Made by a program: the position numbers and the translations under genes
Assembly: GCA_964438075.1 (NCBI GenBank)
Contig: CAYTIW010000007.1
Coordinates: forward strand, 1 to 64,000
Direction: 5' to 3'
DNA from: an uncultured Planctomycetales bacterium
GTDB taxonomy: Bacteria; Omnitrophota; Gorgyraeia; Zapsychrales; Fredricksoniimonadaceae
DNA length: 64,000 bases
The notes under the pieces: generated by a model
Database searches by the model: none
What the model saw: only the letters and a program-made list of their open reading frames with translations
What the model was told of the DNA's origin: nothing
In this document: in pieces, positions 10,249-64,000 of the stretch
Layout of the letters: the number at the start of each line of letters is the position of its first letter
Position numbering within the stretch: the stretch's first letter is position 1

Positions 10249-10263
10249 GATTAGAGGGAGGCC

Positions 10264-10482: not shown

Positions 10483-10485
10483 TCG

Positions 10486-10716: not shown

Positions 10717-10730
10717 CAAAGGAGCCGGTC

Positions 10731-11486: not shown

Positions 11487-11498
11487 AAAGAGCTCGTA

Positions 11499-13791
<2,293 letters not shown>

Positions 13792-13793
13792 AG

Positions 13794-15539: not shown

Positions 15540-15634
15540 TGCCTTTTTGCCCATTTTTACTTCAGCCCCCTGTCCTGGTGTTTTGCATCGTTGGGATCGT
15601 TCGATGACTCTAAATAATGAAAGGGGCCGGTCCC

Positions 15635-19148: not shown

Positions 19149-19149
19149 T

Positions 19150-20178
19150 ATGCGGGTATCGTCCAGCCAAGGCGGTTTTATATTGATCTTTACTCTGTGG
19201 GTGCTTGGTTTTCTTTCCGTTCTGGCTATCGCCGTCGGAATGGGTTCCCGGCAGAAGATCGCTTTTCTGGAAAGGCTGGAAGACCGCAGCCGGCAGCACC
19301 TGTCCGCAGAGGCCGGGGCCAAGAAGGCGCTCGCTTTGTTGGTCGACGATATCGAGAACAACAAGTTGGCTTTTAACGCCGAGGCCAAGTCCCGTAGGCA
19401 TAATAATCCGGCTGATTTCTCCGGCATTGTTGTCGGCGATAACGGATTCGATGTCTTACACACGGTTTATGACGAAACATCCGGCGCCATGGTGGAACGC
19501 TATGGGGTTTCCGACGAGCAGGGAAAACTCAACCTTAACAACGTCAGTGGCGAACAGCTGGCCAGGCTCTTGGCAGACGTTTTGGGCATGACGACCGAAG
19601 AGGCGCGGAAACAGTCCCAGGCTATTATAGACTGGCGCGATTATGGCAAACATGAAGCCGAAGGTTTTTTTAGCGACGATTATTATAAGAATCTCGAGCA
19701 TCCTTATGAGATGAAGGAGAAGCCCTTCGAACGCATCGATGAACTCTTGCTGGTGAAGGGGCTTGATAATAATAAGTACCATAAATTGCTGCCGTTCGTC
19801 ACGGTATGGGGAGATGGCAGGGTGAACATCAATACCGTTTCGGAGAGGGTCCTCGTTGCGCTGGGGCTGGATCCGGCAGTGGCAGAAAAGGTCCTTAAGG
19901 TCCGCCGGGGAACGGATGACCTTGAATCTACCAGCGACGACCATATATTCACCCGGGCTTTTGATGTTGCCGTTGAGGTCAAGGCGGTCTTGCCTCTGGA
20001 AGAACGCGAGATGCGGCAGATCGACGCCCTTAACACCCGCGGGCTGTTGTCGGCCAATTCTTTTTTGTATTCCATTCGAAGCCGGTCATTGCTGGCTGAC
20101 GGAAAAACAGGCGGGGCAGAAGTGAACATGGTTTTTGATGCTTTGGCCAATAAAATCGTATTCTGGTTCGAAAAATAA
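19150..20178 (+). CDS. gspK: Minor pseudopilin GspK-like
   Basis: Start taken at MRVSSSQGGFILIFTLWVLGFLSVLAIAV, with no Glu+5, as in GspK. The GspK-like segment is IDELLLVKGLDNNKYHKLLPFVTVWGDGRVNINTVSERVLVALGL. Confidence 0.7.
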   Translation: MRVSSSQGGFILIFTLWVLGFLSVLAIAVGMGSRQKIAFLERLEDRSRQHLSAEAGAKKALALLVDDIENNKLAFNAEAKSRRHNNPADFSGIVVGDNGFDVLHTVYDETSGAMVERYGVSDEQGKLNLNNVSGEQLARLLADVLGMTTEEARKQSQAIIDWRDYGKHEAEGFFSDDYYKNLEHPYEMKEKPFERIDELLLVKGLDNNKYHKLLPFVTVWGDGRVNINTVSERVLVALGLDPAVAEKVLKVRRGTDDLESTSDDHIFTRAFDVAVEVKAVLPLEEREMRQIDALNTRGLLSANSFLYSIRSRSLLADGKTGGAEVNMVFDALANKIVFWFEK

Positions 20179-20244
20179 ATCAGTTTTGGGTTGATTGACG
20201 GAAAAAGCTTAGTCTATAATGTAGCCATCAAATGCGGAGAAAAC

Positions 20245-26086: not shown

Positions 26087-28618
26087 TTAGAGATCCTTGG
26101 GCCAGGATACTTCGTAGAGGTAGACGCGCGTCCGACCCGTGAGGTCGCGTTCGAGAGCGAAAGGATGGAAATATTTCAGCCCTTTGCCTTCGAAATAATA
26201 CATTTTGACTACCAGCGAATTGGCCAGGACCCGGTCCATCAGGACGACTTTGGGAATGCCTTCGTCCTTATAAAACACCAGGGAGTATCCCAGGTTAGCC
26301 CCGGACAATTTTTTCTCTACCACCGCTTTCTGATCATCGTCCAGGTAGACCACGCTTTGCGGTATGCCGCGGCCGAACTTTGGCGAATCTATCGTGGCGG
26401 TCATATCGGCCGTGTTTACGACAATGCCGTTCTCAAATATTATTTTAGGCCCGTCGCTGGCCATCGCCCCGATGGACTGCGATTGTTTGAAAGGCCCGCC
26501 GACCAGGCTCCAGAGGAAATCGACAAAGCCGGGAGAGGATTTTCCCGGCACTTTACTCAGCGCTTCCGGGTCCCGGTTGAGCCTTTCGATCTTGGCGAAG
26601 TCCCATTTTCCCACATATCCCAGCAGCACGTTCCCTTCGACTATTTCATGGTAGATGAGAACGTAGGAAGGAGGTGGCACGACCGCGCTGCCGTGGGTCA
26701 GGCTCAAAAGATGCGTGACATTCTGTTGGGGAAGGACCTTCAGGAGCGCTCGTTCCGCCTCGGCTTTTTTTAACCTGGTGATCTCTAAGATCAGCGGTAC
26801 CGCCTTGGATAGCGGCAGGTCCAGGCTTTGCAGGTATTCGGCGGCGCGGTTAGAACTGGTATTCAGCATGCGCAGTATACCCAGGGCATCACGTTCGTTC
26901 TGCGCCAGGTATACCTTGGTCATCCAGAATCCCTGTTCGCCGCGTATAGAGGCGCCGTCAAAGGTTACACGCCGCCGGCTGACGGCCTTGACAAAATGGC
27001 CCGGCGACCACCAGGTATTGACGATACTGTCGGGAGGGGAGTAGTCGCGCAGGCGGGTCAGCGCACGATCCCAAGTGGAATTGAAAATGGGGTTCAACAG
27101 CGAGCGTATAGTGGTATGGCTGATGATGATCGGCAAAGCCACCGATACTATTATGAGCGTCCCGAGGATCTTTTCCAGCATCACGGCGGGTTTCTCTGAC
27201 AGTCTGAACAGACCCGATAGCGCATGGCGGCCTTGCCAAATTTGATCCAACCCCAGAGCGAACAGGAGCGCGACGGGGGTGACGCTCAGCATGGCGAAAC
27301 GCTGGGCGCTCAGGCTGAGCACCAGGGTGCTGGCAAGGAAAATGGCCAGAGTGATCATTTCATCAGAAGGCGCTTTGCGTTTGAGCAGGGACATGACACC
27401 GAACCAGACCAGGGTGGCAATTGCCCCGAAGAATGGCACGGGCCCGCCGTTGAACTCCACGATCTCTTTCAGCGTGGCACGTTTCAGTTCTCCCACGACT
27501 ATGAAGAGGTCCGGCCAGTCCTTGAGCCTGGGGGCGGTGAATTTTTGCAGTTCTCCCCAGGCCGCGGTCATAGTCTCGAAGAACTGCGGCAGGCCGATCA
27601 TCATAGTGACGGCCAGCACAGGCACGGCGATGAACAGGGCCAACAAAAACCCTATACGCGGCAGGCGCTGCTCTTTCAGCAGCCAGGCCTTGCCGGCGAT
27701 GAGAACGACCGAGAAGACGGTCAGCGCCCAAAGATATCCCCAGCCCGGCCAGAAACGGGAATACAAGGCCGCTGTTAACGCCGAGAGAACGGAGAACAGG
27801 AGCAGTCGCCGCTTCTCGCTGGTGTTTTTAAGCGCCAGGAAGAAGAATGCCAGGCCAAGGAGCGGGAAAAGCACGGTATAGGTGTCGTTGTCGTACCAGG
27901 CATAGGTGCTGCGTTTAAGATATATCTGGGAAAGGACAAAAAAGACGCCAGCCGTGAAAGAGGAAAGCGGCGAACAGCCCATAGCATGGCAGGCCAGCAG
28001 GAATGCGGCTACCACCAGCGGCAAAAGGAAGATAGGGGTCCAGGCCACCCCGGACATAAGGTCGGTATCCGGAGCCAAGGCCCGTACGGTCCGGTATACC
28101 CAGGCTCCGACGTAAGGATGCCAGAGCTGGGGTTCCCAGAATCCCAGGGGAGCCAGCATCAGGTTGTTGAAATAGCGGCTGCCCTTAACCTGAGGGCTTA
28201 CGTCGCCTTCTTTCAGGATGTTCTCTGTTAAGTTCAGGAAATAATAGGAGTCTGACTCCTGCAGATAGCGTTTCTGGTTACCGGACCGCTGCGAGAGCTC
28301 ATATCCCAGCTCATCGAAAGCCTTGCGGAGTTTGGCATTATCCTTGCGTATTATCTCGTTGACCTTGGCGGATAAAAGGAGTGTCTTCTTGGCCGGAGGC
28401 AGCTCAGGGTACTGGGCATTGATTTGGGCGGCTATCTTGCTTCGCAAGTGGTTTATGACCAGGAGAGTGGCCTGTTCGTAGGCGTCCGAGGCAACATTGT
28501 GATATAGGGGATACAGGCGTACCTGTATCCCGATCATGCATATTGCCAAACCTATTAAGAGCCAGGTGATAAGTTTTCGCAGGGGATATCCGTTGGGCAT
28601 GGGGTCTGTTTGATTCAA
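26087..28618 (-). CDS. STT3/AglB/PglB-family oligosaccharyltransferase-like membrane protein (variant WWSPG motif)
   Basis: 843 aa with a multi-TM N-terminal half. There is an acidic motif in the long first external loop (LQESDSYYF). IVNTWWSPGHFVKAVSRRRVTFDGAS aligns to the WWDYG region of OSTs (..TWWDYGY.....S.....VDG..). A soluble C-terminal domain follows. Confidence 0.55.
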   Translation of the reverse strand: MNQTDPMPNGYPLRKLITWLLIGLAICMIGIQVRLYPLYHNVASDAYEQATLLVINHLRSKIAAQINAQYPELPPAKKTLLLSAKVNEIIRKDNAKLRKAFDELGYELSQRSGNQKRYLQESDSYYFLNLTENILKEGDVSPQVKGSRYFNNLMLAPLGFWEPQLWHPYVGAWVYRTVRALAPDTDLMSGVAWTPIFLLPLVVAAFLLACHAMGCSPLSSFTAGVFFVLSQIYLKRSTYAWYDNDTYTVLFPLLGLAFFFLALKNTSEKRRLLLFSVLSALTAALYSRFWPGWGYLWALTVFSVVLIAGKAWLLKEQRLPRIGFLLALFIAVPVLAVTMMIGLPQFFETMTAAWGELQKFTAPRLKDWPDLFIVVGELKRATLKEIVEFNGGPVPFFGAIATLVWFGVMSLLKRKAPSDEMITLAIFLASTLVLSLSAQRFAMLSVTPVALLFALGLDQIWQGRHALSGLFRLSEKPAVMLEKILGTLIIVSVALPIIISHTTIRSLLNPIFNSTWDRALTRLRDYSPPDSIVNTWWSPGHFVKAVSRRRVTFDGASIRGEQGFWMTKVYLAQNERDALGILRMLNTSSNRAAEYLQSLDLPLSKAVPLILEITRLKKAEAERALLKVLPQQNVTHLLSLTHGSAVVPPPSYVLIYHEIVEGNVLLGYVGKWDFAKIERLNRDPEALSKVPGKSSPGFVDFLWSLVGGPFKQSQSIGAMASDGPKIIFENGIVVNTADMTATIDSPKFGRGIPQSVVYLDDDQKAVVEKKLSGANLGYSLVFYKDEGIPKVVLMDRVLANSLVVKMYYFEGKGLKYFHPFALERDLTGRTRVYLYEVSWPKDL

Positions 28619-31951: not shown

Positions 31952-32191
31952 ATGCCCAGCACCAAGAATGAAGCTTTATTGAGCAACGCAAAGGTCCAGG
32001 AAGAGATATCCAAACACCGGTGGATAGAGAGCGAGAAGGCTGGTTCGGACATCGGTTTTGACAGAGCAGCTAAGGACTGGCTTAACCGTTTTTCAGATGA
32101 TTGGATAAAGGCCAATTTGTCGCAGCATAGCACGGTGACCCGTAGTCTTTTCAAGGCCGCTAACAACAAAACCAGGGCCAAACGGGGGTAG
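31952..32191 (+). CDS. Small conserved protein, paralog 1 (KHRWIESEKAG motif, basic tail)
   Basis: 79 aa with GGAGGT 6 nt upstream of the ATG. The first ~57 aa are near-identical in pattern to the 33229 product (VQEEISKHRWIESEKAG.DIGFD.A.KDWL.R.S..W.KANLS). Confidence 0.6.
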   Translation: MPSTKNEALLSNAKVQEEISKHRWIESEKAGSDIGFDRAAKDWLNRFSDDWIKANLSQHSTVTRSLFKAANNKTRAKRG

Positions 32192-33228: not shown

Positions 33229-33471
33229 ATGGGCAGCTTAAAGAATGAATTCTTATTGTCCGACAACAGGGTCCAGGAGGAGATCTCCAAGCACCGGTGG
33301 ATAGAAAGTGAGAAGGCCGGGGCCGATATCGGTTTCGATAACGCATCCAAGGATTGGCTTACTCGATATTCAGAGGGATGGATGAAGGCCAATCTTTCAC
33401 GACAAGCCACATCTGCCTGCGGTGCCCCCAAGGGTAATGGCAAAACCAGGGCCAGGCGCATCAAGTCCTGA
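33229..33471 (+). CDS. Small conserved protein, paralog 2
   Basis: 80 aa with GGAGGA upstream. It shares the KHRWIESEKAGADIGFD core and a basic C-terminal tail (KTRARRIKS) with the 31952 product. Confidence 0.6.
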   Translation: MGSLKNEFLLSDNRVQEEISKHRWIESEKAGADIGFDNASKDWLTRYSEGWMKANLSRQATSACGAPKGNGKTRARRIKS

Positions 33472-34388: not shown

Positions 34389-35441
34389 ATGAGTGAAAGC
34401 GATTATAATCTGACCTGTCCCGTCCCCTTGAACAGGCATAAGCGTATTTTGCTAGCTCACGGCAGTGGCGGCGCCCTGACCCATGAGCTAATCGATAAAG
34501 TCTTTGCGCCTGCCTTTGACAATCCTTTTATACGCCAGCATCACGACGGGGCAGTAGCAGATCTCCCAGCCGGCAAACTGGCCATTACTACCGATTCCTA
34601 TGTGGTGCGGCCGCTTTTTTTCCCTGGGGGGGACATCGGCCGGCTGGCCGTATACGGCAGCGTGAACGATCTGGCCATGTGCGGTGCGCGACCTCTTTAC
34701 TTGAGCGTTGCCTTTATTCTCGAGGAAGGGTTCGAGATCGCACAATTGGTCCGCATTGTCGATTCCATGAAGAAAGCGGCGGATCAATGCGGAGTAAAGA
34801 TAATAACCGGTGACACCAAGGTAGTGGATAAAGGCAAAGGCGACGGGGTCTTTATTAACACTACCGGAGTGGGAGTTATCGGACACGGGTTGTCCATTAT
34901 TCCCGCGTCTATCCGCGAAGGCGATGCCATTATCTTGAGCGGGGACATCGGCCGGCACGGGGTGGCGGTCATGCTCGCGCGGGAGGGGTTATCCATGGAG
35001 AGCTCGGTCGAGAGCGACGCGGCGCCATTGGCAGACAGTGTGCTGGAACTTATCGAGCGCGGCATAAAAGTACATTGTTTGCGCGACCTGACACGGGGAG
35101 GGTTGGCCACCGCGTTGGTCGAGTTGGCCCAAGGCTCTGGATCGGAGTTGAGGGTTAGCGAACGCGATATCTCAGTATCGCCGCCGGTCCGTGGAGCATG
35201 CGAGGTCCTTGGACTGGACCCGCTTTATGTAGCTAACGAGGGCCGCTTTGTTTGTATAGCACCGGCCTCGGAGTCCGCGGCCGTGTTGGAGGTCTTGAAG
35301 AGGCGCCCCGGCGGGGATAATGCCGGCTGCATAGGGATAGTCGCCCGTGGTGACCGGCCGCAGGCCATACTGGAGAACGCCATTGGCACCTCCCGTGTCT
35401 TACATATGCTCCCGGGAGAACTGCTGCCAAGGATATGTTGA
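34389..35441 (+). CDS. hypE: [NiFe]-hydrogenase maturation protein HypE
   Basis: AIR-synthase-like PurM fold. It has the N-terminal ..LTCPVP.., GDTKVVDKGKGDGVFINTTGVG, and the diagnostic C-terminal PRIC ending. Confidence 0.9.
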   Translation: MSESDYNLTCPVPLNRHKRILLAHGSGGALTHELIDKVFAPAFDNPFIRQHHDGAVADLPAGKLAITTDSYVVRPLFFPGGDIGRLAVYGSVNDLAMCGARPLYLSVAFILEEGFEIAQLVRIVDSMKKAADQCGVKIITGDTKVVDKGKGDGVFINTTGVGVIGHGLSIIPASIREGDAIILSGDIGRHGVAVMLAREGLSMESSVESDAAPLADSVLELIERGIKVHCLRDLTRGGLATALVELAQGSGSELRVSERDISVSPPVRGACEVLGLDPLYVANEGRFVCIAPASESAAVLEVLKRRPGGDNAGCIGIVARGDRPQAILENAIGTSRVLHMLPGELLPRIC

Positions 35442-38693: not shown

Positions 38694-40184
38694 TCATAGG
38701 TCCGGACCCGTCAAAGAAGGCTTCGGGGCGCATTCTCGACCCTTACTACTGTGGGTGATCTTTTTCCAGAAATAATCCAGAAAAGCGCCCAGGCCGTAGA
38801 GCTTACGCAGCAGATCGCCCAGCGAGCGTATGGAGATCAGCATCCGCCACATCTGGACAGGCCGAAGGTAAAATTCTTTCAAGCCAACATCTATCAGAGC
38901 ATCGATCTCCTTATTTGAAAGCTGCGGATAGGACAGAAGCGTTTTCTGTTCACCCTCGGCCGTCAGCCAGTCGGTCCAGTCCTTGCCCAGCAGGTAGCCG
39001 TTATCCCGCGCCCATTTATAGAGCTGCGTTCCCGGATAGGTGGCAATTCCGGTTATCTGCATGGTGTCCAGAGGAAGCGACTTGGCATAATCGATAGTAG
39101 ATCGAGCGCTGGCCCGGGTTTCGCCGGGTGCTCCTATCATGAAACAGCCGTGAATGGTGAATCCCAGTTCGTGTGCCCGCTTGGTGAATCGGCGCCCCAT
39201 CTCGACGTTCACACCGCCTTTACGCACCGCCCTCAGCGCTTCGTCGGTACCGAATTCATACCCGACCATCAGCATGCGGCAGTTGGCCTCTTTCATCAAA
39301 GGTAAGAGATCGAGGTCGGTATTGATGCGCATGTTGCAGGACCAGGAGATGCGTTTGTGCAGTCCCCGCCGCATGATCTCCCGGCAGACGCCGCGGACAT
39401 GCTCGGGATCGGCCGCGAAGGTGTCGGTCTCGAACATGATCTCGCGCAGTTGGGGGAAAAGCCGGAGGTCGTATTCCATTTCGTCAGCTACCAGCTCCGG
39501 TCGCCTGATCCGCAGCCGGTAACCATACATAAGCTGGGGATCGCGGCAGAAGGTGCAGGCGTTGTTGCAGCCGCGTCCGGTGAAGAGAGTAAGGAAAGGG
39601 TATTTCTTGCCGGCATCCGGGTACCATTCCGGCTTTATCATATGCCAGGCCGGGAAGGGCAGATGGTTCACGTCCAGCGGCGGACGGTCGGGGTTGGCCC
39701 TGACCTCGCCGTCGCCATCCTGCCAGGTAAGACCGGAGATCTCGTTGAGCGGTCTGCCTGAGGCCAGGTCCCGGAGGGTGTAGTCGTACTCCCCGCGAAG
39801 GATATAGTCGACTGCGCCGTTAGCGATCTCGAAAGTGTTCAGCGGTTCGGCCGTGACATGCTGTCCCACGAAGGCCACTTTACATCCGGTCTGGCCCTTT
39901 ATCAGGCGGGACTGGTCGATATCGTTGTAGATCGAAGGGGTAGTGGCGTGGACAAGGAGCAAGTCCGGATGGAAGTCGCGGACCATCCGGGCGCTGGTCT
40001 CGGGGGAAAGATTCCTGGCAGCCGCTTCGACAAAAACCACCTCGTGGCCGGCGTCGAGCAGCACCTGGGCGGCAGTCAGCAGATAATCCGGATGGCGCTG
40101 GACGCGGCCTCGGGATTTCGCCGACCAGCGGGCCACCCTTACGAAATTCTCACCGAAAGAAGGGTTTAATATACAGATATTCAT
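38694..40184 (-). CDS. B12-binding-domain radical SAM enzyme
   Basis: N-terminal cobalamin-binding-type domain and a radical SAM cluster motif GRGCNNACTFC. Its ATG overlaps the stop of the upstream GT-C gene (ATGA). Confidence 0.85.
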   Translation of the reverse strand: MNICILNPSFGENFVRVARWSAKSRGRVQRHPDYLLTAAQVLLDAGHEVVFVEAAARNLSPETSARMVRDFHPDLLLVHATTPSIYNDIDQSRLIKGQTGCKVAFVGQHVTAEPLNTFEIANGAVDYILRGEYDYTLRDLASGRPLNEISGLTWQDGDGEVRANPDRPPLDVNHLPFPAWHMIKPEWYPDAGKKYPFLTLFTGRGCNNACTFCRDPQLMYGYRLRIRRPELVADEMEYDLRLFPQLREIMFETDTFAADPEHVRGVCREIMRRGLHKRISWSCNMRINTDLDLLPLMKEANCRMLMVGYEFGTDEALRAVRKGGVNVEMGRRFTKRAHELGFTIHGCFMIGAPGETRASARSTIDYAKSLPLDTMQITGIATYPGTQLYKWARDNGYLLGKDWTDWLTAEGEQKTLLSYPQLSNKEIDALIDVGLKEFYLRPVQMWRMLISIRSLGDLLRKLYGLGAFLDYFWKKITHSSKGRECAPKPSLTGPDL

Positions 40185-41759: not shown

Positions 41760-43205
41760 CTATCGGTGGCTGACTTTATATAACTTTTGATAAGCAAAAC
41801 GGAACCGTAATTCAGGTCGAAGATAATCTTCAATCAGTATGCCGCCGATAAGTTTGATCCGGTAATACTGCTGTATCGTATAGAGAGAACTGGCTTCGTA
41901 ACCTTTAAGATAGGGCGAGTCGGTATAATAGACCGGTTTACCTTCTTTCAAGTGGCCTTCAACTTTATTAATAAAAATATTGATCGCTTCGGGGGAACCG
42001 TTTATTGGAAGCCAGGCAGTCTGCCGCTGGCCGTAATACTGGATAAAGGGGAACTGGTTCACGGTTATGATAAGTGCATCCGGTTCCGTACGAAATTTTA
42101 CATATTCCGCCAGCCGCTTTTCTCCATTGTAGCGGTGCCGGAAGGCCAGCATCGGATAGGAGTAGAGGAACATGCTGGCTACGCAGTAGATCACTAAGGA
42201 ACTGATCAATACTTTTGAACGGGGGTAAAGTTTAGCGAGAGGATAGGACGCAAACACATAAATGGGGATCAGGACCACATCCAAGAACCGGACAGCATAC
42301 CACTTGGTGCATCCATGTACCAGGATCAGCAACAGCCATAACAAGAAAAGCAGGGTCAGAAAGGGGGTCCCGCTCCTGGCCATGTTCCATATACCCAAAA
42401 GCATGAACACGAAGACCAGGAAGGGCATGCTCATTTGCAGGTCGCTTAAGGCTGGGAGGAGGGTCGGGCTGAGTATGCTGGTCAACTCTGCGCCCCGGGC
42501 TGATTGCAGTAGATAGCCCCATGCCATCACAGCCAGCGGGATCAATAGCGGGACAAAAAAGGCGATAAGCTTGACCGCTGAGAAACGTTTCAAAGGCATA
42601 ATGATCTTGAAGGGGCGCCATCCTATAGCTGGATTTAGGAACAGCAGTATGAACAACAGCAGGGTAGATAGTTGCGATTCCCGCACCGCTATAGATAAGA
42701 CATAACAAAGGCTGGCCAGTGCCAGCGTTAAAGGGCTGTCCTTTTCGACGCCGCGGTGAAGGATAATGAAAGATGTCAACAGTAAGAAGATGCCCATTCC
42801 GTGTTCTTTGCCGTATGTGTTGGGATTGAAATAGAGCGGCGTGAAGGATAGTAAAAGTGCCCCGAAAAAGGCCTGGACGCCGTCGCGGAACAGGTTTCTT
42901 ATTAAATAATAGAAAGCCACCACGGACAATGAATGGAAAAGGACGCTGGAGATGCGGGTCGCCAATTCGGCATTCTGCCCCAGAAGGTGGAACGGCCAGT
43001 AAAGAAGGGAATTGATGGCTACAGCGCCATAGCGGCCCAGTACCGCCGGCTGCAAGATCCCTGTCTGGTATGTGTGTTCGACCGCCATGGCCAGCGCCAC
43101 GCTGTCCATGTGGAAAAGACCTTCATTGATAAAAAGCAGGCCAACGATGAAATTGAGCAGGAATAATCCGGGAGGGACCAGCCGTGCTGCGCAGAACCGA
43201 CTCAT
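41760..43205 (-). CDS. GT-C-fold polytopic membrane glycosyltransferase-like protein, paralog B
   Basis: Same architecture and shared sequence blocks as paralog A (INEGLFHMDS; AFRHRYNGEK vs EFRHRYNGKK; PVYYT). Confidence 0.55.
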   Translation of the reverse strand: MSRFCAARLVPPGLFLLNFIVGLLFINEGLFHMDSVALAMAVEHTYQTGILQPAVLGRYGAVAINSLLYWPFHLLGQNAELATRISSVLFHSLSVVAFYYLIRNLFRDGVQAFFGALLLSFTPLYFNPNTYGKEHGMGIFLLLTSFIILHRGVEKDSPLTLALASLCYVLSIAVRESQLSTLLLFILLFLNPAIGWRPFKIIMPLKRFSAVKLIAFFVPLLIPLAVMAWGYLLQSARGAELTSILSPTLLPALSDLQMSMPFLVFVFMLLGIWNMARSGTPFLTLLFLLWLLLILVHGCTKWYAVRFLDVVLIPIYVFASYPLAKLYPRSKVLISSLVIYCVASMFLYSYPMLAFRHRYNGEKRLAEYVKFRTEPDALIITVNQFPFIQYYGQRQTAWLPINGSPEAINIFINKVEGHLKEGKPVYYTDSPYLKGYEASSLYTIQQYYRIKLIGGILIEDYLRPELRFRFAYQKLYKVSHR

Positions 43206-56624: not shown

Positions 56625-57992
56625 ATGCCAGCTGCTTTGGAGAAATACGCACATAAGCTTGTAAAAAAGATCCGTTTTCGTATACCAGATATACCAGGAG
56701 CTTTGGGACGTTTGGCATCAACTCTGGGAGCTCAGGGAGCGGTACTGGGAGACATTGTGACGGAGAATGTTACGTCCAATTACATAATCCGTGACATCAC
56801 GATATATTTTGACACCAAGGAAGAACTTGATGCCGCTCTTTCCGCAGCCCGTAAACTAAAAGGATACAAGATACTGGATGTTAAAGATGAAGTCCTGAGC
56901 ATACACCAAGGAGGGAAGATCGCGATCATACCTCGGGTCAAGGTGGAGACCCTAAGCGACCTGCGTATGATATATACTCCTGGGGTGGCTCAGGTCTGTC
57001 ATCATATTGCCAAAGTTCCTGGTGATGCCCGAAATTATACTTCCATAGGGAACACTGTTTGTATAGCTACCAATGGATCCGCTGTGCTTGGACTGGGTGA
57101 TATAGGTGTACTGGCTGCCATGCCGGTGATGGAAGGAAAATCACTTATACTTGGCCGCTTCTCCGGTGTCAGCTGCGTGCCGCTGTTGCTGGATAGTGAT
57201 GATCCTAAAACCATTGTAGATGCTTTGGCAACCTTAGCCAAGACATTCAGCGTTATTATGCTGGAAGACATTAGTGCTCCCCTTTGTTTTGAAGTAGAAA
57301 AGCAACTCCAGCAACGTGTCGATATCCCGGTCTTCCATGACGATCAGCATGGAACGGCCGTTGTGATCCTAGCCGCCCTTATCAAAAGTTTGAAGATGGT
57401 AAGAAAAAAGAAAGAGACAGTGCGCATCGTGATAAACGGTGCCGGAGCCGCTGGTATGGCTGCTTGCCTGTTGCTTTTGGAATATGGTTTTAAGAATATA
57501 ATCCTCTGCGACCGCAACGGAGCCATTTACCAAGGACGCAAAGAAGGAATGAATCCATATAAGGAAGAGATATCTCTGGTCAGCAATAACAAGAAGATAG
57601 CCGGTCCCTTGCCAGCCGTAATGGCGGGGGCTGACGTTTTCATTGGAGTATCGTCTGCCGGTCTGGTCAAGCCGGCCATGGTAAAGTCTATGGCTAATAA
57701 GGCGATAGTTTTCGGCCTGGCCAATCCTGTACCGGAAATATGGCCTAAAGACGCCCTGGCGGCAGGTGCTGCCCTAGCCATGGACGGCCGGACCATAAAT
57801 AATGCTCTTGCTTTTCCTGGGCTTATCCGGGGTGCCATTGATGCCCAGGCGAAGCGCATTACCTATTCGATGAAGTTCGCCGCTGCCGAGACGCTGGCTT
57901 CCCTGGCCGGCAAGAATGAGCTGGTCCCCAACTTCATGCATATGGCTGTTCATGAGAAAGTAGCCGAAGCGGTCAAGGCAGCCGTAAGCTAA
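56625..57992 (+). CDS. NAD(P)-dependent malic enzyme with an N-terminal ACT domain
   Basis: Start taken at MPAALEKY. ACT-like ~75 aa (IPDIPGALGRLASTLG), then IYTPGVA, FHDDQHGTA, and the Rossmann motif INGAGAAG. Confidence 0.85.
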   Translation: MPAALEKYAHKLVKKIRFRIPDIPGALGRLASTLGAQGAVLGDIVTENVTSNYIIRDITIYFDTKEELDAALSAARKLKGYKILDVKDEVLSIHQGGKIAIIPRVKVETLSDLRMIYTPGVAQVCHHIAKVPGDARNYTSIGNTVCIATNGSAVLGLGDIGVLAAMPVMEGKSLILGRFSGVSCVPLLLDSDDPKTIVDALATLAKTFSVIMLEDISAPLCFEVEKQLQQRVDIPVFHDDQHGTAVVILAALIKSLKMVRKKKETVRIVINGAGAAGMAACLLLLEYGFKNIILCDRNGAIYQGRKEGMNPYKEEISLVSNNKKIAGPLPAVMAGADVFIGVSSAGLVKPAMVKSMANKAIVFGLANPVPEIWPKDALAAGAALAMDGRTINNALAFPGLIRGAIDAQAKRITYSMKFAAAETLASLAGKNELVPNFMHMAVHEKVAEAVKAAVS

Positions 57993-58054
57993 AAAAGGTT
58001 TGCGTAACGTTTTCTTGCGAGCGCAGTTCATCCTCGTAAAACGTGCTGGTCTGT

Positions 58055-59470
58055 TCAGGCTCCTAAAAGTGCTGCTGCCTGTTTTAGAAGATCATTCAGG
58101 AATGGCGGGATATAAAGACCGAGTATCAAGACGATAAGGGCCAGCAGCAAGATCGGCATGACCATGGGCACGGTTTCCTTTCTGGAATGGGCCATGGTCT
58201 CTGGCGGCAAGCCTTGGATCATTCTCAAAATAATGTCCGCCACACCCAGGAAGATCAGCCCCAGGAAAATAACAAACAACACAGCGACCACATAATTCCC
58301 TTTGGTGATCGCTGAATATAAAATGATAAGCTCGCTCAAGAAGGTGCCGAACGGAGGCGCACCCGTAACAGCCAGGAAGCCGGCTAAAAGCAGGATGCCA
58401 GTAACCGGGTATGAACGAAGGGCTCCGCGCACGTCTTTTACCTTTTTGCTGTGATATTGTTTGTAAAGGTTCCCCGTGACGAGGAAGACAAAACCCTTGG
58501 TGAAGGCATTGTTCACCAGATGCAAGAGGCTCCCGTATATCCCTACCCCACCAAGGCCGATACCAATAGCCAGGATCCCCATGTGCTCAACGCTGGAATA
58601 GGCCAGCATCCTTTTATAATCGGTCTGCCCTAGGATAAAAACATACGCGATACCCATGGAAGTGAGCCCTAGCACTATCAGCATGGAAGAAAAGAACTGA
58701 TCCTGCCCCGCTGCGTGACAGATCTGGGCCACTCTCAGGATACTTAGGAATGCGCAGTTCAACAGACAACCTGACAGCAAGGCAGAGATAGGTGAAGGCG
58801 CCTGCGAATGGGCATCCGGCAGCCAGGAATGCATCGGGGCCAACCCCATTTTGGTCCCACAGCCGATCAAAAGAAAAATGGCGCTGATCTTAAGCCACGG
58901 TAAGGAAAGTTCTGAGGCCTGAGTTAGAAGTTTATCCAGAAGAAGTGTTTGCACATTCATGGCTGATACCGCCAGGAAATATGTACCGAGCAGGGCCAAT
59001 GCTATCCCAACCAGACAGATCATCAGGAACTTCCAGGAAGCTTCAATGCTTTGCCTCGTCTTTTCAAAATTGATCAAAGGTACGCTGGCCAAGGTAGTGG
59101 CCTCTATTCCGATCAGCAGGATCCCGAAATGCCGGCTGATAACGACCAGGGTGATAAAGGATAGGAACGATAATAAGACGCTGACGAATATCCTGTGAGG
59201 CATATCTTCGACTTCCTCGAAATAATCCAGTAGATAAAAAGCTACCATGAGGAACAGAAAGCTCACTACCGAAAGGACCAGAAGACCCAAAGCATCGACC
59301 GCCAGGAACCCGTTGAACGCCGCTGCCGGGGTCTTGCTCCAGAAAGTGATCACACTGGTAAAATGTGCCAGAGCGACCAGAAAAAGCACTCGCTGTCTTG
59401 TTGTTTTGCACGGTAGCAGCAACGTGAGTCCGCCGGCAATTAAAGGAAGGAAAAGCACGAATAACAACAT
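58055..59470 (-). CDS. Antiporter-like proton-conducting membrane subunit (HyfF/NuoN/MrpD family)
   Basis: 471-aa polytopic protein. It carries the family-typical segment GLAPMHSWLPDAHSQAPSPISALLSG and sits in a Hyf-like gene cluster. Confidence 0.75.
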   Translation of the reverse strand: MLLFVLFLPLIAGGLTLLLPCKTTRQRVLFLVALAHFTSVITFWSKTPAAAFNGFLAVDALGLLVLSVVSFLFLMVAFYLLDYFEEVEDMPHRIFVSVLLSFLSFITLVVISRHFGILLIGIEATTLASVPLINFEKTRQSIEASWKFLMICLVGIALALLGTYFLAVSAMNVQTLLLDKLLTQASELSLPWLKISAIFLLIGCGTKMGLAPMHSWLPDAHSQAPSPISALLSGCLLNCAFLSILRVAQICHAAGQDQFFSSMLIVLGLTSMGIAYVFILGQTDYKRMLAYSSVEHMGILAIGIGLGGVGIYGSLLHLVNNAFTKGFVFLVTGNLYKQYHSKKVKDVRGALRSYPVTGILLLAGFLAVTGAPPFGTFLSELIILYSAITKGNYVVAVLFVIFLGLIFLGVADIILRMIQGLPPETMAHSRKETVPMVMPILLLALIVLILGLYIPPFLNDLLKQAAALLGA

Positions 59471-59473
59471 ATA

Positions 59474-60118
59474 TCAATCCTTTAGAGTGGTCAGGTGGCG
59501 AGTGTCCGTGGTCTCGAACTCTTCACTTATGTGATCTACCACTATCCCCATGACCAGAACCGCGATAAAAAGGTCCAGAATGATCCCCATTTCGACCAGA
59601 AAAGGCATCTTTTTTAAAAGCAAGATGGCAAAGAGAAAGATGCCGTTCTCCAAGACCAGATAACCGACCACCTGGCTGATCGCCTTATTGCGGCCGACCA
59701 GGAGCAAAAAGCCTAAGATCACCAGCAGAAAGGAAGTCGGGATAAGCATGCCGGATATCCCGGCCACAGGAAAGACCAGCCTGGAGGCCAGCAAGAAGGA
59801 CCCGATTATAGCCAGGCCGCACAAAAAGAATACCCGGCCAAAACCTATGACCGGATTGATCTCACTGCGAACGGAAACATGCCGGATCGCCCAAAAAAGG
59901 AAATAAGGCATCAGAAAGCCTCTCAAGATAATAGTAGCCGCAGAAACTATAATGATATGGATCTCCAGGTCGTTAAAATACATAAAGAACGGAACGGTCC
60001 CCAGGACGCACGACTGGAGCCCCAGGATCTGTATCATGGTCCCTAACCGTCGGCTGCCGACTATCAGCAGCCCGAGCATGACGATCAGTATCAAGATCGC
60101 TTCCAGCCACGCATTCAT
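59474..60118 (-). CDS. HyfE-like small membrane subunit
   Basis: 214 aa with ~7 TM segments, and AISQVVGYLVLENGIFLFA resembling the HyfE/NuoK-related core. Its size matches HyfE. Confidence 0.62.
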   Translation of the reverse strand: MNAWLEAILILIVMLGLLIVGSRRLGTMIQILGLQSCVLGTVPFFMYFNDLEIHIIIVSAATIILRGFLMPYFLFWAIRHVSVRSEINPVIGFGRVFFLCGLAIIGSFLLASRLVFPVAGISGMLIPTSFLLVILGFLLLVGRNKAISQVVGYLVLENGIFLFAILLLKKMPFLVEMGIILDLFIAVLVMGIVVDHISEEFETTDTRHLTTLKD

Positions 60119-60120
60119 TG

Positions 60121-61038
60121 CTATCTCCTCACCAGCGTAACAATGAGACCGAATATTGACATGATGAACGCCAGCAGCAGTAAATAGACCACCCGGTTCA
60201 TGCGCAGGCGCGCCATTGTCGACTCAACGACCCCTATCAAGACCGCAAAGGCGGACATCCCCGCCAGGTACATGGCGGTGTCCTGCCAGATATCCTTGAT
60301 CTGGAAAGGAAAGATCATGGAAATGAAAATGCTGCCCAGCAGAAAAAGTTTTATCGCCTTGCCATAAAGGATGTAAGCCAGGTCCACTCCCCCATGGTCC
60401 AGGACCATGACTTCATGGATCATCGTTAGTTCCAGGTGCGTTTCGGGATCGTCTACCGGTATACGCGAATTCTCCGCCAGCAGGATAAGGAAGAAGCTAC
60501 CCAGCACGAGCAAGAGCTCCGGGCCGGCCACTGGCCAGGAAGAGGCCATCTGCCCCACCAGCATATCAGATAGGGAAAGACTTTTTGCCAAGAGGGCCAG
60601 GATCGTGAGATCCAAGAGTAAAGTTATCTCGGATAAACTCGCGAAGGTCGCCTCCCGGCTGGAGCCCATGCCTTCAAAACTGGAGCCGGTATCGAGGGCG
60701 GCTAGTATCGTGACGAAACGCACTACTGCGAAAAGATAGGCGAAGAGCAGCATGTCACCCCAGAATTGAATGGGGGCTTTCAAAGGCCCCAAAGGGATCA
60801 CAATAGTGGCAGCCAGCGTAGCGGCCATTGAGATCATGGGTGCCATGCGGAAGATCCAGGTGGTCGTCGAGCTATAGACGCAACCTTTGCGCATTAATTT
60901 AAAAAGATCGAAATAGGGCTGCATCAAAGGCGGTCCCCAGCGGCCGGAAAAAAAGGCCTTGGTCTTGCCAATGATCCCTAAAAGCACTGGTGAAAGGACC
61001 ACGACAAATAACATATGTGACAATATATCCACGGTCAT
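60121..61038 (-). CDS. NuoH/HycD/HyfC-like membrane subunit
   Basis: 305 aa. The YFDLFKLMRKG, FEGMGSSRE and PVDDPETHLELTMIHE blocks are typical of HycD/NuoH. Confidence 0.78.
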   Translation of the reverse strand: MTVDILSHMLFVVVLSPVLLGIIGKTKAFFSGRWGPPLMQPYFDLFKLMRKGCVYSSTTTWIFRMAPMISMAATLAATIVIPLGPLKAPIQFWGDMLLFAYLFAVVRFVTILAALDTGSSFEGMGSSREATFASLSEITLLLDLTILALLAKSLSLSDMLVGQMASSWPVAGPELLLVLGSFFLILLAENSRIPVDDPETHLELTMIHEVMVLDHGGVDLAYILYGKAIKLFLLGSIFISMIFPFQIKDIWQDTAMYLAGMSAFAVLIGVVESTMARLRMNRVVYLLLLAFIMSIFGLIVTLVRR

Positions 61039-61039
61039 T

Positions 61040-63022
61040 TTATCCCAATTTCCATATCAACAAGATCAGAAGGAAAGAAAGAACGTACAAAATATAACTT
61101 TGGGTATGTCCGCTCTGTATCCATTTCAACTTCCAGGAGATCTTTTTGATCCCATAGAACAGCGGCCGGAAGACCAAATATTCCGAAGCATCTTTCACTG
61201 AGGAACTCAAATGGGCCGGGGCCGGGTAATATTTCCGTGTATCGGTGAGCTCGACTTTAAAAAGCAAAATGCTTTTAAAGAAATTTATGATCGAGGCCGC
61301 GAAGGAGGAGGCGGTATATTGCATCCGGGCGGAAGGGTAGGCATAGCCGCAGGTCCACGTCTCCCCCTGTCGAACCGGATAGGCTTGCAGCGCAAGTTTT
61401 CGCAAAAGGGCCAGGATGATGAAAATAAGGGCGCTGATCATTAATATCTTGGTGACCAGAAAAAGCGGAGCAATGACCGTCGCCAGCATGTCATAAGGGA
61501 TCACCACGCCAGTGATTGCCTGTGCCGCCTCCAGAGCATAGAAGACCATTACTGCCGGAAAAAGCCCGCCCCAGAAACAAATGGCCGCCAGTGCCAGCAT
61601 AGGGCCCCGTAACAGCCAGCCCGGTTCGGCGCAATGATATTCTTTGGCCGCCCGGCTCTTGCCCAGGAAAATGGCGCCGAAAGCCTTGGTAAAGCAAAGC
61701 GCGGCCAGCCCGCCTATCAGCGCCAGGGCGACTATGGCCAGGCTGGAAAAGATCACGCCGTAAATATCCAAACGGAATACGCCTTCCAAAATGGCCCTGT
61801 AGACCAGCCATTCGCTTATAAAACCGTTGAAAAGGGGTAAGCCGCAGATCGAAAATGACCCAATGAGGAAAAGGCCCCCGGTCCAGGGCAGCGCTTTAAT
61901 CAATCCCCCCATATCATCCAGAGACCCGGTGTGGGTCGAACGGATAACGGATCCAGCGCTCAGGAACAAAAGCCCCTTGAACAAGGCGTGATTGAAAGTA
62001 TGCAACAACGCCCCCGCATAGCCGATGAACGCGACGGATTCTTGTTGGTAGATGTGGCCCGTCAATCCAACCCCGAGCCCGAGTAAAATGATACCTATAT
62101 TCTCGATACTGTGGTATGCCAAAAGTTTCTTTACTTCATGCTGTCCCAGGGCGTATAACACCCCCCCTACTCCGGAAATAACAGCCAGGGCCAGCAGAAA
62201 TATCCCGCACCACAAGGGGAGATCATGGATGATAGCGATAATACGCATCAGGCCGTAAATACCGATCTTGATCACGACCCCGGACAACAAGGCGGAAATG
62301 TGGGTCGGGGCGGCCGGATGGGCATATGGTAACCAGATATGCAAAGGGATCATGCCGGCCTTGGCGCCAAAACCGACCAGGGCCAGTAAAAAGATCAATG
62401 CCGCCGAGCCTAAAGGGAATTGCGTGGCCCGCATCACATCGAAATCCAGGGAGCCCGCCTGGGCTCCCATCAGAAGGAACATGCCCAGCAGGCAAAAAGT
62501 CGCGCTATGCGTGGCTATCAGATAAATATATCCTGCCCGCTGGACCGTTTCCTTTTCATTATAAAAAGTGACAAGAAAATAAGAAACGAACGTCATCAGT
62601 TCCCAGGCCACGAGGAATATAAAAACACCTTTGGCCACCAAAATGAGGGCGATGGCCATGATCAGCAGATGATAGAGCGCGAAATGCACTCCGATGTTCC
62701 TTTGACCGCCGTACTCCCGTAAATAACCATAGCCATATATTCCGGCAGCCAAGGCAAGGAGGAAAACCAATAAAAGGAAAAAAGCGCTTAAAACGTCCAT
62801 CCCGATATGGAAAGTCCCTAAAGGGATCTGCCAATGGGCCCTGAAATCCCACGCCAGTGCCGGTTTACACAATATCTCGAGGGCGGACAGAAGACCCAGG
62901 CCGCAGCCGATGACCAGAGAGCCCAGAAAGATATGACCTGAAATTATTTTACAGCGCGCAGACAGCAATATCGCGAGTGAGGCGAGCGTTAAAACGGCGA
63001 GGCTTGATAATAGGAGTACCAT
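61040..63022 (-). CDS. Antiporter-like large membrane subunit (HyfB/HycC/NuoL family)
   Basis: 660 aa. GFGAKAGMIPLHIWLPYAHPAAPTHISALLSGVVIK, HALFKGLLFLSAG. Confidence 0.8.
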   Translation of the reverse strand: MVLLLSSLAVLTLASLAILLSARCKIISGHIFLGSLVIGCGLGLLSALEILCKPALAWDFRAHWQIPLGTFHIGMDVLSAFFLLLVFLLALAAGIYGYGYLREYGGQRNIGVHFALYHLLIMAIALILVAKGVFIFLVAWELMTFVSYFLVTFYNEKETVQRAGYIYLIATHSATFCLLGMFLLMGAQAGSLDFDVMRATQFPLGSAALIFLLALVGFGAKAGMIPLHIWLPYAHPAAPTHISALLSGVVIKIGIYGLMRIIAIIHDLPLWCGIFLLALAVISGVGGVLYALGQHEVKKLLAYHSIENIGIILLGLGVGLTGHIYQQESVAFIGYAGALLHTFNHALFKGLLFLSAGSVIRSTHTGSLDDMGGLIKALPWTGGLFLIGSFSICGLPLFNGFISEWLVYRAILEGVFRLDIYGVIFSSLAIVALALIGGLAALCFTKAFGAIFLGKSRAAKEYHCAEPGWLLRGPMLALAAICFWGGLFPAVMVFYALEAAQAITGVVIPYDMLATVIAPLFLVTKILMISALIFIILALLRKLALQAYPVRQGETWTCGYAYPSARMQYTASSFAASIINFFKSILLFKVELTDTRKYYPAPAHLSSSVKDASEYLVFRPLFYGIKKISWKLKWIQSGHTQSYILYVLSFLLILLIWKLG

Positions 63023-63089
63023 GTTTTTTTATTACCGTCCTGGCCTAGGCAAATCGCGCAAGTTCACGGGAGTTGCCCGGTCTATTCCC

Positions 63090-63764
63090 TTAAGTCTTTA
63101 TCCTGGCCAGCAATCGTAAAAACCCGTCCAGGATGGTCAACGGATGCGGCGGGCAGCCAGGGATAAAGAGGTCGACAGGCAGAATGCCGTCCAGCCCCTT
63201 TGATGTTTCCGGGCTGCCGGCAAATATCCCCCCGGAGACCGCGCAGGCCCCGACCGCTACCACGATCTTAGGGTCGGGCGTGGCTTCGTAAGTTTTAAGA
63301 AGCGCTTCTTTCATGTTGCGCGTTATAGGCCCGGTCACCACAATCCCGTCTGCATGTCTGGGTGAGGCCACGAACTGAATGCCGAAACGACTGAGATCGA
63401 AGACCGGGGTGTTCAGCACGTTTATGTCCGCTTCGCAGGCATTGCATCCGCCTGCTGACACTTGGCGCAGCTTGAGCGATCGGCCGAAAATACGCAGCAT
63501 CTCCTGTTTGAGGGACCGCGCTAACGCGAGCTCCTCCCCCCTGAGGACCAGGTCGCTTCGCCGGCCGACGGCCATCCGGTAGTCGTTGGAATAGTTCACC
63601 CCGCCGTCCGGGATGAAGGTCATTGTCCCCAGGTCCAGTCCTTCCGGGTTCCCGGCGATGATAGGCCGCCCGCGGTAGCGTGCGGGCAGGGCCGGTGGAG
63701 GTATTCGAGGGAATTTAAGCGTCCTGCATCCTTGCAAAAACCGCGTCTTGATGATTTTCAACAT
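63090..63764 (-). CDS. NuoB/HycG/HyfI-type small subunit with an N-terminal HyfH/HycF-like leader segment and no ferredoxin clusters
   Basis: The core has GGCNACE, ASPRHADGIVVTG, GACAVSGG and PGCPPHP, the four Cys of the proximal [4Fe-4S]. The N-terminal ~75 aa (MLKIIKTRFLQG.RTLKFP...RYRGRP) contain only one Cys. Confidence 0.82.
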   Translation of the reverse strand: MLKIIKTRFLQGCRTLKFPRIPPPALPARYRGRPIIAGNPEGLDLGTMTFIPDGGVNYSNDYRMAVGRRSDLVLRGEELALARSLKQEMLRIFGRSLKLRQVSAGGCNACEADINVLNTPVFDLSRFGIQFVASPRHADGIVVTGPITRNMKEALLKTYEATPDPKIVVAVGACAVSGGIFAGSPETSKGLDGILPVDLFIPGCPPHPLTILDGFLRLLARIKT

Positions 63765-63772
63765 AATGTCAC

Positions 63773-64000
63773 CTATAGGTCATGCCCACAATATGAAAGA
63801 TTGAAACTCTTGTTGCACAGAGGGAAATCCGAGATCTCCTGGTTACGGACCGCCAGGCTGAGACCGAACCAGTTGTGGAAAGAAGGGTCTTTGATCTTAT
63901 AACGTGCAAAACCGCCCTGGGCGTCCGTGATGCCGACATGAGCGATCTCTCCGCGCCATCCCTCCACTAAGGCTAAGGCCAAGGTGTCAGGCCTCATCGG
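63773..64000 (-). CDS. C-terminal end of a NuoD/HycE/HyfG-type large subunit (gene continues beyond the window)
   Basis: VEGWRGEIAHV...YKIKDPSFHNW...ISDFPL pattern of the 49-kDa/large-subunit family. It ends ...CNKSFNLSYCGHDL instead of ...DPCxxCxx[RH]. Confidence 0.7.
   Translation of the reverse strand, partial: PMRPDTLALALVEGWRGEIAHVGITDAQGGFARYKIKDPSFHNWFGLSLAVRNQEISDFPLCNKSFNLSYCGHDL

Follow-up and report, generated by a model that had tools for sequence, protein, structure and literature searches.

The stretch of DNA analysed here, 64,000 nucleotides long and called the window below, ends inside a gene read from the minus strand, and this gene fragment very probably encodes the C-terminal end of an Ehr-type (also Hyq) large subunit and not that of a NiFe hydrogenase. 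The complex, here from an Omnitrophota bacterium, is a descendant of the group 4 membrane-bound [NiFe] hydrogenases that is unable to bind a NiFe centre, and it is neither a conventional NiFe hydrogenase nor a quinone reductase of the complex I type. As read from its genes, it is predicted to retain one Fe-S cluster and the full ion-translocation machinery. The finding as stated adds a further member to a known, widespread family and does not reveal a new kind of system, while a truncated small subunit and a duplicated membrane arm make the locus a modest variant. If Ehr identity, the features of the lineage and the mechanism proposed below are taken together, this explanation as a whole is likely to be the right one.

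Genes of this kind are found in public databases as 'hydrogenase', 'Ni,Fe-hydrogenase III large subunit' or 'NADH-quinone oxidoreductase subunit C', and PF00346 has served as a complex I marker in metabolic reconstructions of Omnitrophota (PMC10066038). It would be wrong to take the present locus for H2 metabolism or for NADH:quinone respiration. Since Ehr occurs in hundreds of genomes from many phyla, its natural variants help to ask which parts of such a machine are essential, and the lineage of the window has useful traits for this purpose, namely one Fe-S cluster, one head with two arms, and sister species with either arm.

The large subunit

The minus strand of positions 63773-64000 holds 75 codons and a stop, ending in EISDFPLCNKSFNLSYCGHDL, with the full reading PMRPDTLALALVEGWRGEIAHVGITDAQGGFARYKIKDPSFHNWFGLSLAVRNQEISDFPLCNKSFNLSYCGHDL; the remaining two minus-strand frames of the same interval contain many stops. 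The earlier note had the residues and the coordinates right and counted 74 amino acids, which is one too few, because the count in the list of open reading frames started from an internal ATG. The whole gene was recovered through an exact look-up of the adjacent small subunit (63090-63764), which lies fully inside the window and whose sequence is present on nine public contigs. Three of them were compared with the window at the nucleotide level: L002 is 99.94% identical across 5369 nt, L099 99.76% across 6600 nt, and L001 99.27% across 6600 nt. L002 and L099 encode the same large subunit of 503 residues, and thus, given their near-identity to the window, this protein can be assigned to the organism of the window at the strain level. 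The part past the window edge was read from L002:8474-9985, and the 3' end in the window, which belongs to a gene like ehrL or hyqG, was identified by its translation and its identity to L002 and L099.

The complete protein is a NuoC-NuoD fusion like HycE, as Pfam finds Complex1_30kDa and Complex1_49kDa in it, while the family of the NiFe hydrogenases, PF00374 (NiFeSe_Hases), gives no match at E<=0.01 in the same search. All of its NCBIfam matches lie under their curated cut-offs, the best being NuoD (NF004739) with 168 bits against 360. When it is compared with the PDB by HMMER, HycE comes first (1e-44), followed by MbhL (3e-37) and Nqo4 (3e-33). An AlphaFold monomer (mean pLDDT 71.9, pTM 0.79) is closest among solved structures to HycE (7z0s_E, TM 0.74) and next to E. 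coli NuoCD. The pocket-forming segments 133-183 and 482-503 of this model have a pLDDT below 50, and therefore no conclusion is drawn from it on the geometry of the former NiFe site.

Loss of the NiFe ligands

How complete is the loss of the NiFe ligands in this protein? It was aligned with E. coli HycE, HyfG and NuoCD, taken from NC_000913.3 (alignment A3). The four ligand columns, defined by HycE and HyfG, are occupied by A207, T210, S497 and G500, which stand opposite C241, C244, C531 and C534 of HycE. In the L1 motif the window protein reads ESIAGDTTIGH where HycE reads DRVCGICGFAH (HycE/HyfG LSDRVCGICGFAH, window protein LSESIAGDTTIGH), and in L2 it ends with KSFNLSYCGHDL and a stop, where HycE has GSLDPCYSCTDR and an extension of 32 residues. 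No C-terminal processing extension is found in the window protein in this alignment. HMMER independently gives the same pairing, with C241/C244 of HycE opposite Ala and Thr, and the register is also fixed independently by six relatives with all four cysteines, which read AERICGVC..SH and DFPLINKSFELCYSCTDR. The earlier note, which had only the last part of the gene at hand, claimed that the L2 cysteines are replaced by Ser and Gly and that the single nearby Cys is offset. This claim holds in alignment A3 (S497, G500 and Cys499, the last one sitting one or two positions off the ligand column). The upstream part of the gene, which the note proposed to inspect, is Cys-less at L1 as well (A207, T210), so that all four ligands are gone in the full-length protein and neither cysteine pair is intact.

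It is to be noted that this absence also holds in the 120 closest homologues and in about 140 diverse representatives. The motifs of the 120 closest homologues are ES[IV]AGDT.[IV]GH and DFPLCNKSFNLSY[C/A/S]GHDL, and the few exceptions to the latter ending among them are single substitutions or truncated sequences. The position of the offset Cys varies in the three commonest endings of this set (C in 55, A in 36, S in 15), and therefore this Cys is not a conserved ligand. The replacement motifs, ES-I-A-G-D-T..GH and DFPLCNKSFNLSY.GHDL, are kept across Omnitrophota and many other phyla and are invariant in 36 of 36 aligned Omnitrophota homologues; little or no variation is seen at Gly208, at Asp209 (which takes the place of the 'x' in CGxC) and at Glu160 in the EPGHFRF loop. 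Judging from these alignments, the Cys-less motif is neither a chance event nor specific to a strain, and the residues that replaced the ligands are under strong conservation.

Placement in the Ehr family

Without use of a profile, 1.84 billion cluster representatives (50% identity) were scanned and the best 150 were taken. All four cysteines are present in six of these 150 (P0216, P0227, P0240, P0247, P0257 and P0265), and each of the remaining ones has at most one. P0216 matches PF00374 with 46.6 bits against a cut-off of 25.8. In a neighbour-joining tree rooted on NuoCD, built without bootstrap and without EhrL of Geobacter sulfurreducens, HycE and HyfG diverge first, and the six Cys-containing sequences form a clade which is sister to one large Cys-less clade. 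The latter contains the window protein, other Omnitrophota, Geobacter/Geomonas/Pelobacter, Geothrix, Rhizobium and many lineages known from metagenome-assembled genomes. A genome scan finds relatives in several hundred species of many phyla.

The family was defined by Coppi 2005 and by Marreiros et al. 2013 (cited in PMC7894505, PMC6349859). Ehr complexes have no Ni/Fe-coordinating residues (PMC6349859), stand near group 4f without CxxC motifs (PMC10284858), and are left out of HydDB as non-hydrogenases. Interaction with H2 is inferred to be absent in Ehr (PMC7304191, PMC10284858), while activity has been claimed for Hyq (PMC3357923). The likeness to Ehr that was suspected from the fragment is thus borne out by the four absent ligands, by a position in the Cys-less clade together with Geobacter-type Ehr, and by a gene order of the Ehr/Hyq kind. 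'Hyf-like complex' was likewise a fair name, as the membrane subunits score best against the HyfB, HyfE and HyfF models, all below curated cut-offs.

The small subunit

The small subunit (63090..63764, minus strand, 224 residues) is NuoB/HycG-like, and matches the NuoB subfamily NF005012 (124 bits, cut-off 116) and Oxidored_q6 at residues 107-217. It has the cysteines of the proximal [4Fe-4S] cluster, C107, C110, C174 and C204, which are conserved in 66-71 of 74 family members. The first two stand in GGC107-N-A-C110-E, a CxxC of the hydrogenase type, where E. coli NuoB has a Cys-Cys pair in GLSCCYVE. Most small subunits of the family carry eight extra cysteines in two ferredoxin motifs at about residues 35-85; Pfam recognizes a Fer4 dicluster domain in those of L009 and L052, and the domain is also present in L013. 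Since this domain occurs in most family members, the canonical Ehr small subunit can be described as a fusion of two domains, one HycF/NuoI-like and one NuoB-like. In the small subunits of the window and of the Omnitrophota homologues L007 and L008, a stretch of about 28 residues is missing and the eight ferredoxin cysteines are all gone, while the flanks can still be aligned. What is left of the 2x[4Fe-4S] ferredoxin domain in the window protein is an N-terminal extension without cysteines, and no separate ferredoxin gene is found in the operon of 11 genes. The chain of three [4Fe-4S] clusters that is conserved in MBH, MBS, NDH and complex I (PMC8165549) is therefore not found here, as only the ligands of the proximal cluster are present. 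The rhizobial HyqI (177 residues) likewise retains the proximal cluster only.

The operon and its two membrane arms

Across phyla the genes are arranged in the order of an HTH_17 + PTS_EIIA_2 gene, A, B, C, D, L and S, where A is HyfB/NuoL-like (at times in two copies), B NuoH-like, C HyfE-like and D HyfF-like. The organism of the window has an operon of 11 genes, regulator, A1, B1, C1, D1, L, S, A2, B2, C2 and D2, separated by -1 to 67 nt, and all 11 are intact in six or seven independent contigs. The window itself holds the end of L, S and the complete second module (58055-63022). Co-transcription is inferred from the gene spacing only; a promoter and terminator scan of 57800-64000 gave no excess over shuffled controls (8 against 5.5±2.7 and 13 against 8.2±3.0), and neither element was seen between S and A2. 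A convergent malic-enzyme gene lies 63 nt past D2, and therefore the second module comes without a separate large or small subunit.

The second module is encoded throughout on the minus strand. A2 (61040..63022, 660 residues) is an antiporter-type subunit like HyfB/NuoL; it matches the hydrogenase-4 subunit B model (575 bits, under the cut-off of 667) and Proton_antipo_M, and keeps 92 of 99 family-conserved columns, including E141, K221, K252, K298, K349 and E404. B2 (60121..61038, 305 residues), a second copy of the NuoH/HyfC/HycD-like subunit that anchors the head, matches PF00146 (NADHdh, 123 bits) and keeps 56 of 58 conserved columns with every conserved acidic residue present. The small membrane subunit C2 (59474..60118, 214 residues), which is HyfE-like, scores 91 bits against the hydrogenase-4 membrane subunit model NF008556, under the cut-off of 136, and retains E86, E157, E176 and D182. 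The final gene of the operon encodes D2 (58055..59470, 471 residues, PF00361), an antiporter-type subunit like HyfF/NuoM/N in which 58 of 60 conserved columns are kept, including E143, K207, K325 and E380. A shorter D2 in some contigs was traced to the start site chosen by the gene caller; the frame is intact in six of six contigs. The paralogues are 49% (A1/A2), 55% (B1/B2), 49% (C1/C2) and 47% (D1/D2) identical, and of the columns conserved to 90% or more in the family nearly all are kept in both arms, including the Glu, Lys and His of the antiporter-type subunits and the acidic residues of the NuoH-like ones.

The double-arm layout is also found in a second species, L094, whose large subunit is 80% identical. 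There, the upstream arm shares 68-74% identity with type 1 and the downstream one 66-71% with type 2. Thus, both arms have been kept together for a long time in two lineages. Type 1 alone occurs in L007, L089, L090, L092 and L093 (Omnitrophota, with L proteins 65-79% identical), and type 2 alone in L088; compared with the double-arm L094, its S has 90% and its L 84% identity. Simple differential loss of arms was considered and rejected, as the type 2 arm of L088 is located upstream and not downstream of L-S, so that a rearrangement is needed too. The coexistence of type 1-only, type 2-only and double-arm relatives means that the head stayed orthologous while it was paired with either arm.

What does the second arm do? 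From a comparison of these loci, the single head most likely pairs with one membrane arm or the other, so that the complex would exist in two isoforms. Relatives that have the same head and only type 1 or only type 2 speak for the viability of both pairings. It is somewhat doubtful whether the whole of a stronger proposal is correct, in which the L-S head docks interchangeably on two anciently diverged arms and the isoforms differ in ion specificity, stoichiometry or direction. If true, it would be the first whole-arm swap in the superfamily of complex I and group 4 hydrogenases, and a natural experiment on the contribution of the head. Alternatively, the second module might act by itself or together with a partner whose genes lie at another locus. 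The codons that differ between strains are 19 synonymous and 2 non-synonymous in L and S, 12 and 2 in module 1, and 20 and 13 in module 2; within the latter, D2 has 3 synonymous and 8 non-synonymous differences, a small sample, and this ratio could hint at relaxed constraint.

Possible function of the complex

What could such a complex do without a NiFe centre? The mechanism proposed here is drawn by analogy and is possible, with somewhat less than even confidence. The L-S head would be seated on the NuoH-like subunit, and a change in redox state or protonation at the single cluster and at the polar pocket replacing the NiFe site would be coupled to movement of protons or cations via the NuoH-like and antiporter-like subunits, as in MBH, MBS and complex I. 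The pocket would consist of the invariant Gly208 and Asp209, Thr/Ser210, Ser497 and the retained Glu160, and the donor would probably be a soluble low-potential carrier such as ferredoxin. There is a precedent in MBS, in which the chamber between the former NiFe site and the proximal cluster can take a different substrate (PMC8165549). With the two distal clusters gone in this lineage, electron throughput is harder to argue for, and no module for an electron donor or acceptor is encoded within the operon. In Riflemargulisbacteria, a formate dehydrogenase with NuoE/F was proposed as the redox partner (PMC6349859). A Pfam census of about 70 loci from many phyla, however, finds no conserved redox partner, be it formate dehydrogenase, NuoEF or another, within 3.5 kb on either side (129 ORFs upstream and 150 downstream, taken as the longest non-overlapping ones, so that small genes may be missed). 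The recurrent neighbours in it are scattered SulP/STAS proteins, two-component systems and sigma-54 regulators, each seen in at most five members.

The main rival to this coupling mechanism, especially after the loss of the ferredoxin domain, is an antiporter independent of redox reactions, or gated by them, under control of the PTS-Ntr type. In its redox-independent form, which seems unlikely, the complex of this lineage would be a cation/proton antiporter of the Mrp kind, capped by a head whose role is structural or regulatory only. The Fe-S cluster that is left would then support the structure or sense the redox state, and the regulator of the PTS-Ntr type, encoded by the first gene of the operon, would exert control. 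Such a cap would agree with the loss of the NiFe ligands and of both distal [4Fe-4S] clusters, with the lack of a conserved redox partner near the roughly 70 loci, and with the ion-translocation residues present in both membrane modules. An HTH_17 + PTS_EIIA_2 gene with the histidine motif IAIPH stands at the operon head in most loci across phyla, and EIIA-Ntr proteins regulate transporters of K+ and other ions in proteobacteria. Against it, the four proximal cysteines are invariant in the small subunits aligned and are present in at least about 90% of family members, the full ferredoxin input domain of canonical members points to ancestral electron transfer, and the conserved polar pocket (G208, D209, E160) suggests chemistry rather than scaffolding.

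Three further readings would have to bring the complex back to a known enzyme or to no enzyme at all. It is very improbable that the complex has remained a hydrogenase and works with a non-canonical active site, which has been claimed for the 'endo-hydrogenase' Hyq of Azorhizobium caulinodans. Genetics does tie H2 recycling and bidirectional H2 activity to hyqRBCEFGI (PMC3357923, PMC2650096), and HyqG (504 residues) of this complex likewise has neither CxxC motif (PMC3357923), but known hydrogenase chemistry needs Cys ligands, the Hyq authors themselves call the NiFe site 'uncertain, if not unlikely' (PMC3357923), and the rhizobial homologues are only about 34-37% identical to the window protein, which has no C-terminal processing extension and no PF00374 match. 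The window does encode a bona fide hypE (TIGR02124, 431 bits, cut-off 252), so that maturation of the NiFe cofactor exists in the organism; this gene is about 28 kb off and unlinked, and more plausibly serves another hydrogenase; from Omnitrophota, hydrogenases of groups 3 and 4g and of the FeFe type have been reported. Automated annotation leads in another direction, to NuoCD of a genuine quinone-reducing complex I/NDH-1: homologues are named 'NADH-quinone oxidoreductase subunit C' at source, NuoD is the best NCBIfam match, and PF00346 is used as a marker of complex I in Omnitrophota (PMC10066038). There is hardly any room for this possibility either, as the NuoD score is less than half of its cut-off (168 of 360 bits) and Nqo4 is a more distant match than HycE and MbhL. 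Of the quinone-site residues in E. coli NuoCD, the His (His38 of T. thermophilus Nqo4) falls opposite Ile159 in alignment A3 and the Tyr (Tyr87 of Nqo4) opposite Gly208, while the loop reads EPGHFRF as in HycE. The small subunit has C-x-x-C and not the Cys-Cys pair of NuoB, and NuoA, J, K, I, E, F and G are absent from the operon of 11 genes. Finally, the stepwise losses of cofactors (NiFe site, two Fe-S clusters) and the non-synonymous excess of D2 between strains might be taken as signs of a decaying, pseudogene-like relic of a hydrogenase operon, an idea which deserves next to no credence: none of the 11 genes is broken in six or seven independent contigs, most codon changes in L, S and module 1 are synonymous, the motifs are invariant across Omnitrophota in a family found in hundreds of genomes of many phyla, and subunits of Geobacter Ehr are seen as proteins, at a higher level on formate (PMC7894505).

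Comparison with known systems

The best-known relative, Ehr of Geobacter sulfurreducens, is encoded by GSU0739-45 (EhrA-1, A-2, B, C, D, L, S). The locus of the window shares with Geobacter-type Ehr a Cys-less large subunit of the same clade, with homologues in Geobacter/Geomonas/Pelobacter 48-50% identical, the order A-B-C-D-L-S, the proximal-cluster cysteines of the small subunit and, in Geomonas and Pelobacter, the same HTH-EIIA gene upstream. Unlike the lineage of the window, Geobacteraceae have two A genes and a single B, C and D, and their small subunit carries the 2x[4Fe-4S] domain (L052), whereas in the window lineage the ferredoxin domain was lost and S is followed by another full set of A-B-C-D. 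Hyq of A. caulinodans and rhizobia (hyqRBCEFGI) is similar in its NuoC::D fusion of 503-504 residues without both CxxC motifs (PMC3357923, PMC2650096), in the order B-C-E-F-G-I and in the one Fe-S cluster (N2-type) predicted in the head. It differs in a short NuoB-like HyqI (177 residues in Bradyrhizobium) without N-terminal extension, in another regulator, in a single membrane module, in an identity of only about 34-37%, and in the hydrogenase activity claimed from genetics.

The nearest Cys-containing proteins are the six relatives mentioned above, which we infer to be group 4f (Ehf) from PMC10284858. The three of them placed in alignment A3 are 32-35% identical to the window protein. These relatives share with it the C-terminal DFPL.NKSF.L.Y..D[LR] without extension and the EPGHFRF loop, but they keep RxCGxC and CxxC, and P0216 matches PF00374, while the window protein does neither. 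Formate hydrogenlyase and hydrogenase-4 of E. coli (HycE/HyfG, group 4a, 7Z0S) have in common with the present complex the NuoC-NuoD fusion and the HyfB/C/E/F-like membrane subunits, at an identity of 27-28% between HycE/HyfG and the window protein; they differ in their NiFe ligands, a cleaved C-terminal extension, a separate ferredoxin subunit (HycF/HyfH) and a formate dehydrogenase partner. MBS is, like the present complex, a derivative of group 4 in which NiFe binding was lost, and it is still an ion-translocating oxidoreductase (PMC8165549). MbsL, however, keeps two of the four cysteines, and MBS has all three [4Fe-4S] clusters (the proximal one held by three cysteines) and an Mrp-type module; its match to the window large subunit is weak (1.4e-16, HMMER against the PDB).

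An exchange of membrane parts around one core, as proposed above, has a parallel in the cyanobacterial NDH-1L and NDH-1MS, in which alternative NdhD/NdhF paralogues make functionally distinct complexes. There, the antiporter-like subunits alone are swapped and a single NuoH homologue is used, whereas in the lineage of the window the entire arm is duplicated, the NuoH-like anchor included.

Genes at the head of the Ehr operon

The first gene of the operon for the energy-converting-hydrogenase-related (Ehr) complex encodes a regulator in which an HTH_17 DNA-binding domain is fused to an EIIA-Ntr-like PTS EIIA-2 domain with an IAIPH histidine motif. For the window organism, it lies just outside the window edge and is found on the near-identical strain contig L002 (2922-3605); its counterparts occupy 4241-4951 in L009 and 2106-2783 in L052, two other Ehr loci. 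Such a gene heads the operon at most loci, in Omnitrophota, Verrucomicrobiota, Planctomycetota, Spirochaetota and Geobacteraceae, and no mention of this association was found in the Ehr literature examined.

Five of the Omnitrophota Ehr loci have, close upstream of the regulator gene, a gene for a STAS-domain transporter of the SulP family (L089:2752-4404, L090:328-1980, L091:2631-4316, L092:1-1388 and L093:473-2125); it adjoins the regulator gene in three of them, and one or two small genes intervene in L092 and L093. The window lineage has no SulP/STAS gene upstream of the regulator, and a small CBM_48/AMPK1_CBM protein is encoded there instead; such a protein likewise precedes the regulator in L092.

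Strain variation and duplication of modules

When the window was compared with the strain contig L001, the gene for D2, the HyfF/NuoM/N-like subunit (58055-59470, minus strand), showed three synonymous and eight non-synonymous codon differences, and that for B2, the NuoH-like subunit, differed between strains by one synonymous and two non-synonymous, whereas synonymous differences outnumbered non-synonymous ones in the other operon genes. These codon counts are a small sample; for D2, with which the second module ends, they could mean that selection is relaxed or diversifying. As for the way by which modules are gained, two Ehr/Hyf-like clusters lie in tandem or a few kb apart in a Geobacteraceae MAG (L056), a Verrucomicrobia MAG (L077) and a Variovorax plasmid (L087). 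These bacteria are unrelated, and such pairs suggest that extra modules have arisen repeatedly by duplication of the whole operon.

Other genes in the window

A gene for the [NiFe]-hydrogenase maturation protein HypE is located at 34389-35441 (plus strand). Its product scores 431 bits with the TIGR02124 model, for which the cut-off is 252, and ends with the canonical C-terminal PRIC. No further hyp genes adjoin it in the window, and this lone hypE implies that a true NiFe hydrogenase is encoded elsewhere in the genome, not linked to the Ehr operon.

At 8449-21744 (plus strand), an F1-like ATPase set, consisting of two ATP-synt_ab proteins, one OSCP-like protein and one gamma-like protein, is directly followed by the type IV pilus genes PilB/T2SSE, PilC/T2SSF, T2SSK and PilM/N. 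This layout is that reported for Velamenicoccia Omnitrophota, a "non-respiratory F-type ATPase next to type-4a pilus genes" (PMC10066038), and suggests that the organism belongs to that class.

Genes for a B12-binding radical-SAM protein (38694-40184; its HpnJ match of 344 bits is below the cut-off of 578), an STT3-like oligosaccharyltransferase homologue of 843 aa (26087-28618) and a PMT_2 glycosyltransferase (41760-43205), all on the minus strand, are envelope or lipid-modification genes unusual for a bacterium. A giant plus-strand ORF of at least 2360 aa (1-7083), which continues past the window start, gave only diffuse Pfam matches without a defined stretch (Lysostaphin_N, Ntox33), which points to a very large protein of repetitive or low-complexity sequence. 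Finally, two paralogous plus-strand ORFs of about 80 aa (31952-32191 and 33229-33471), 1.3 kb apart, have in common the motif QEEISKHRWIESEKAG.DIGFD..(A/S)KDWL, and each has an overlapping ORF on the opposite strand.
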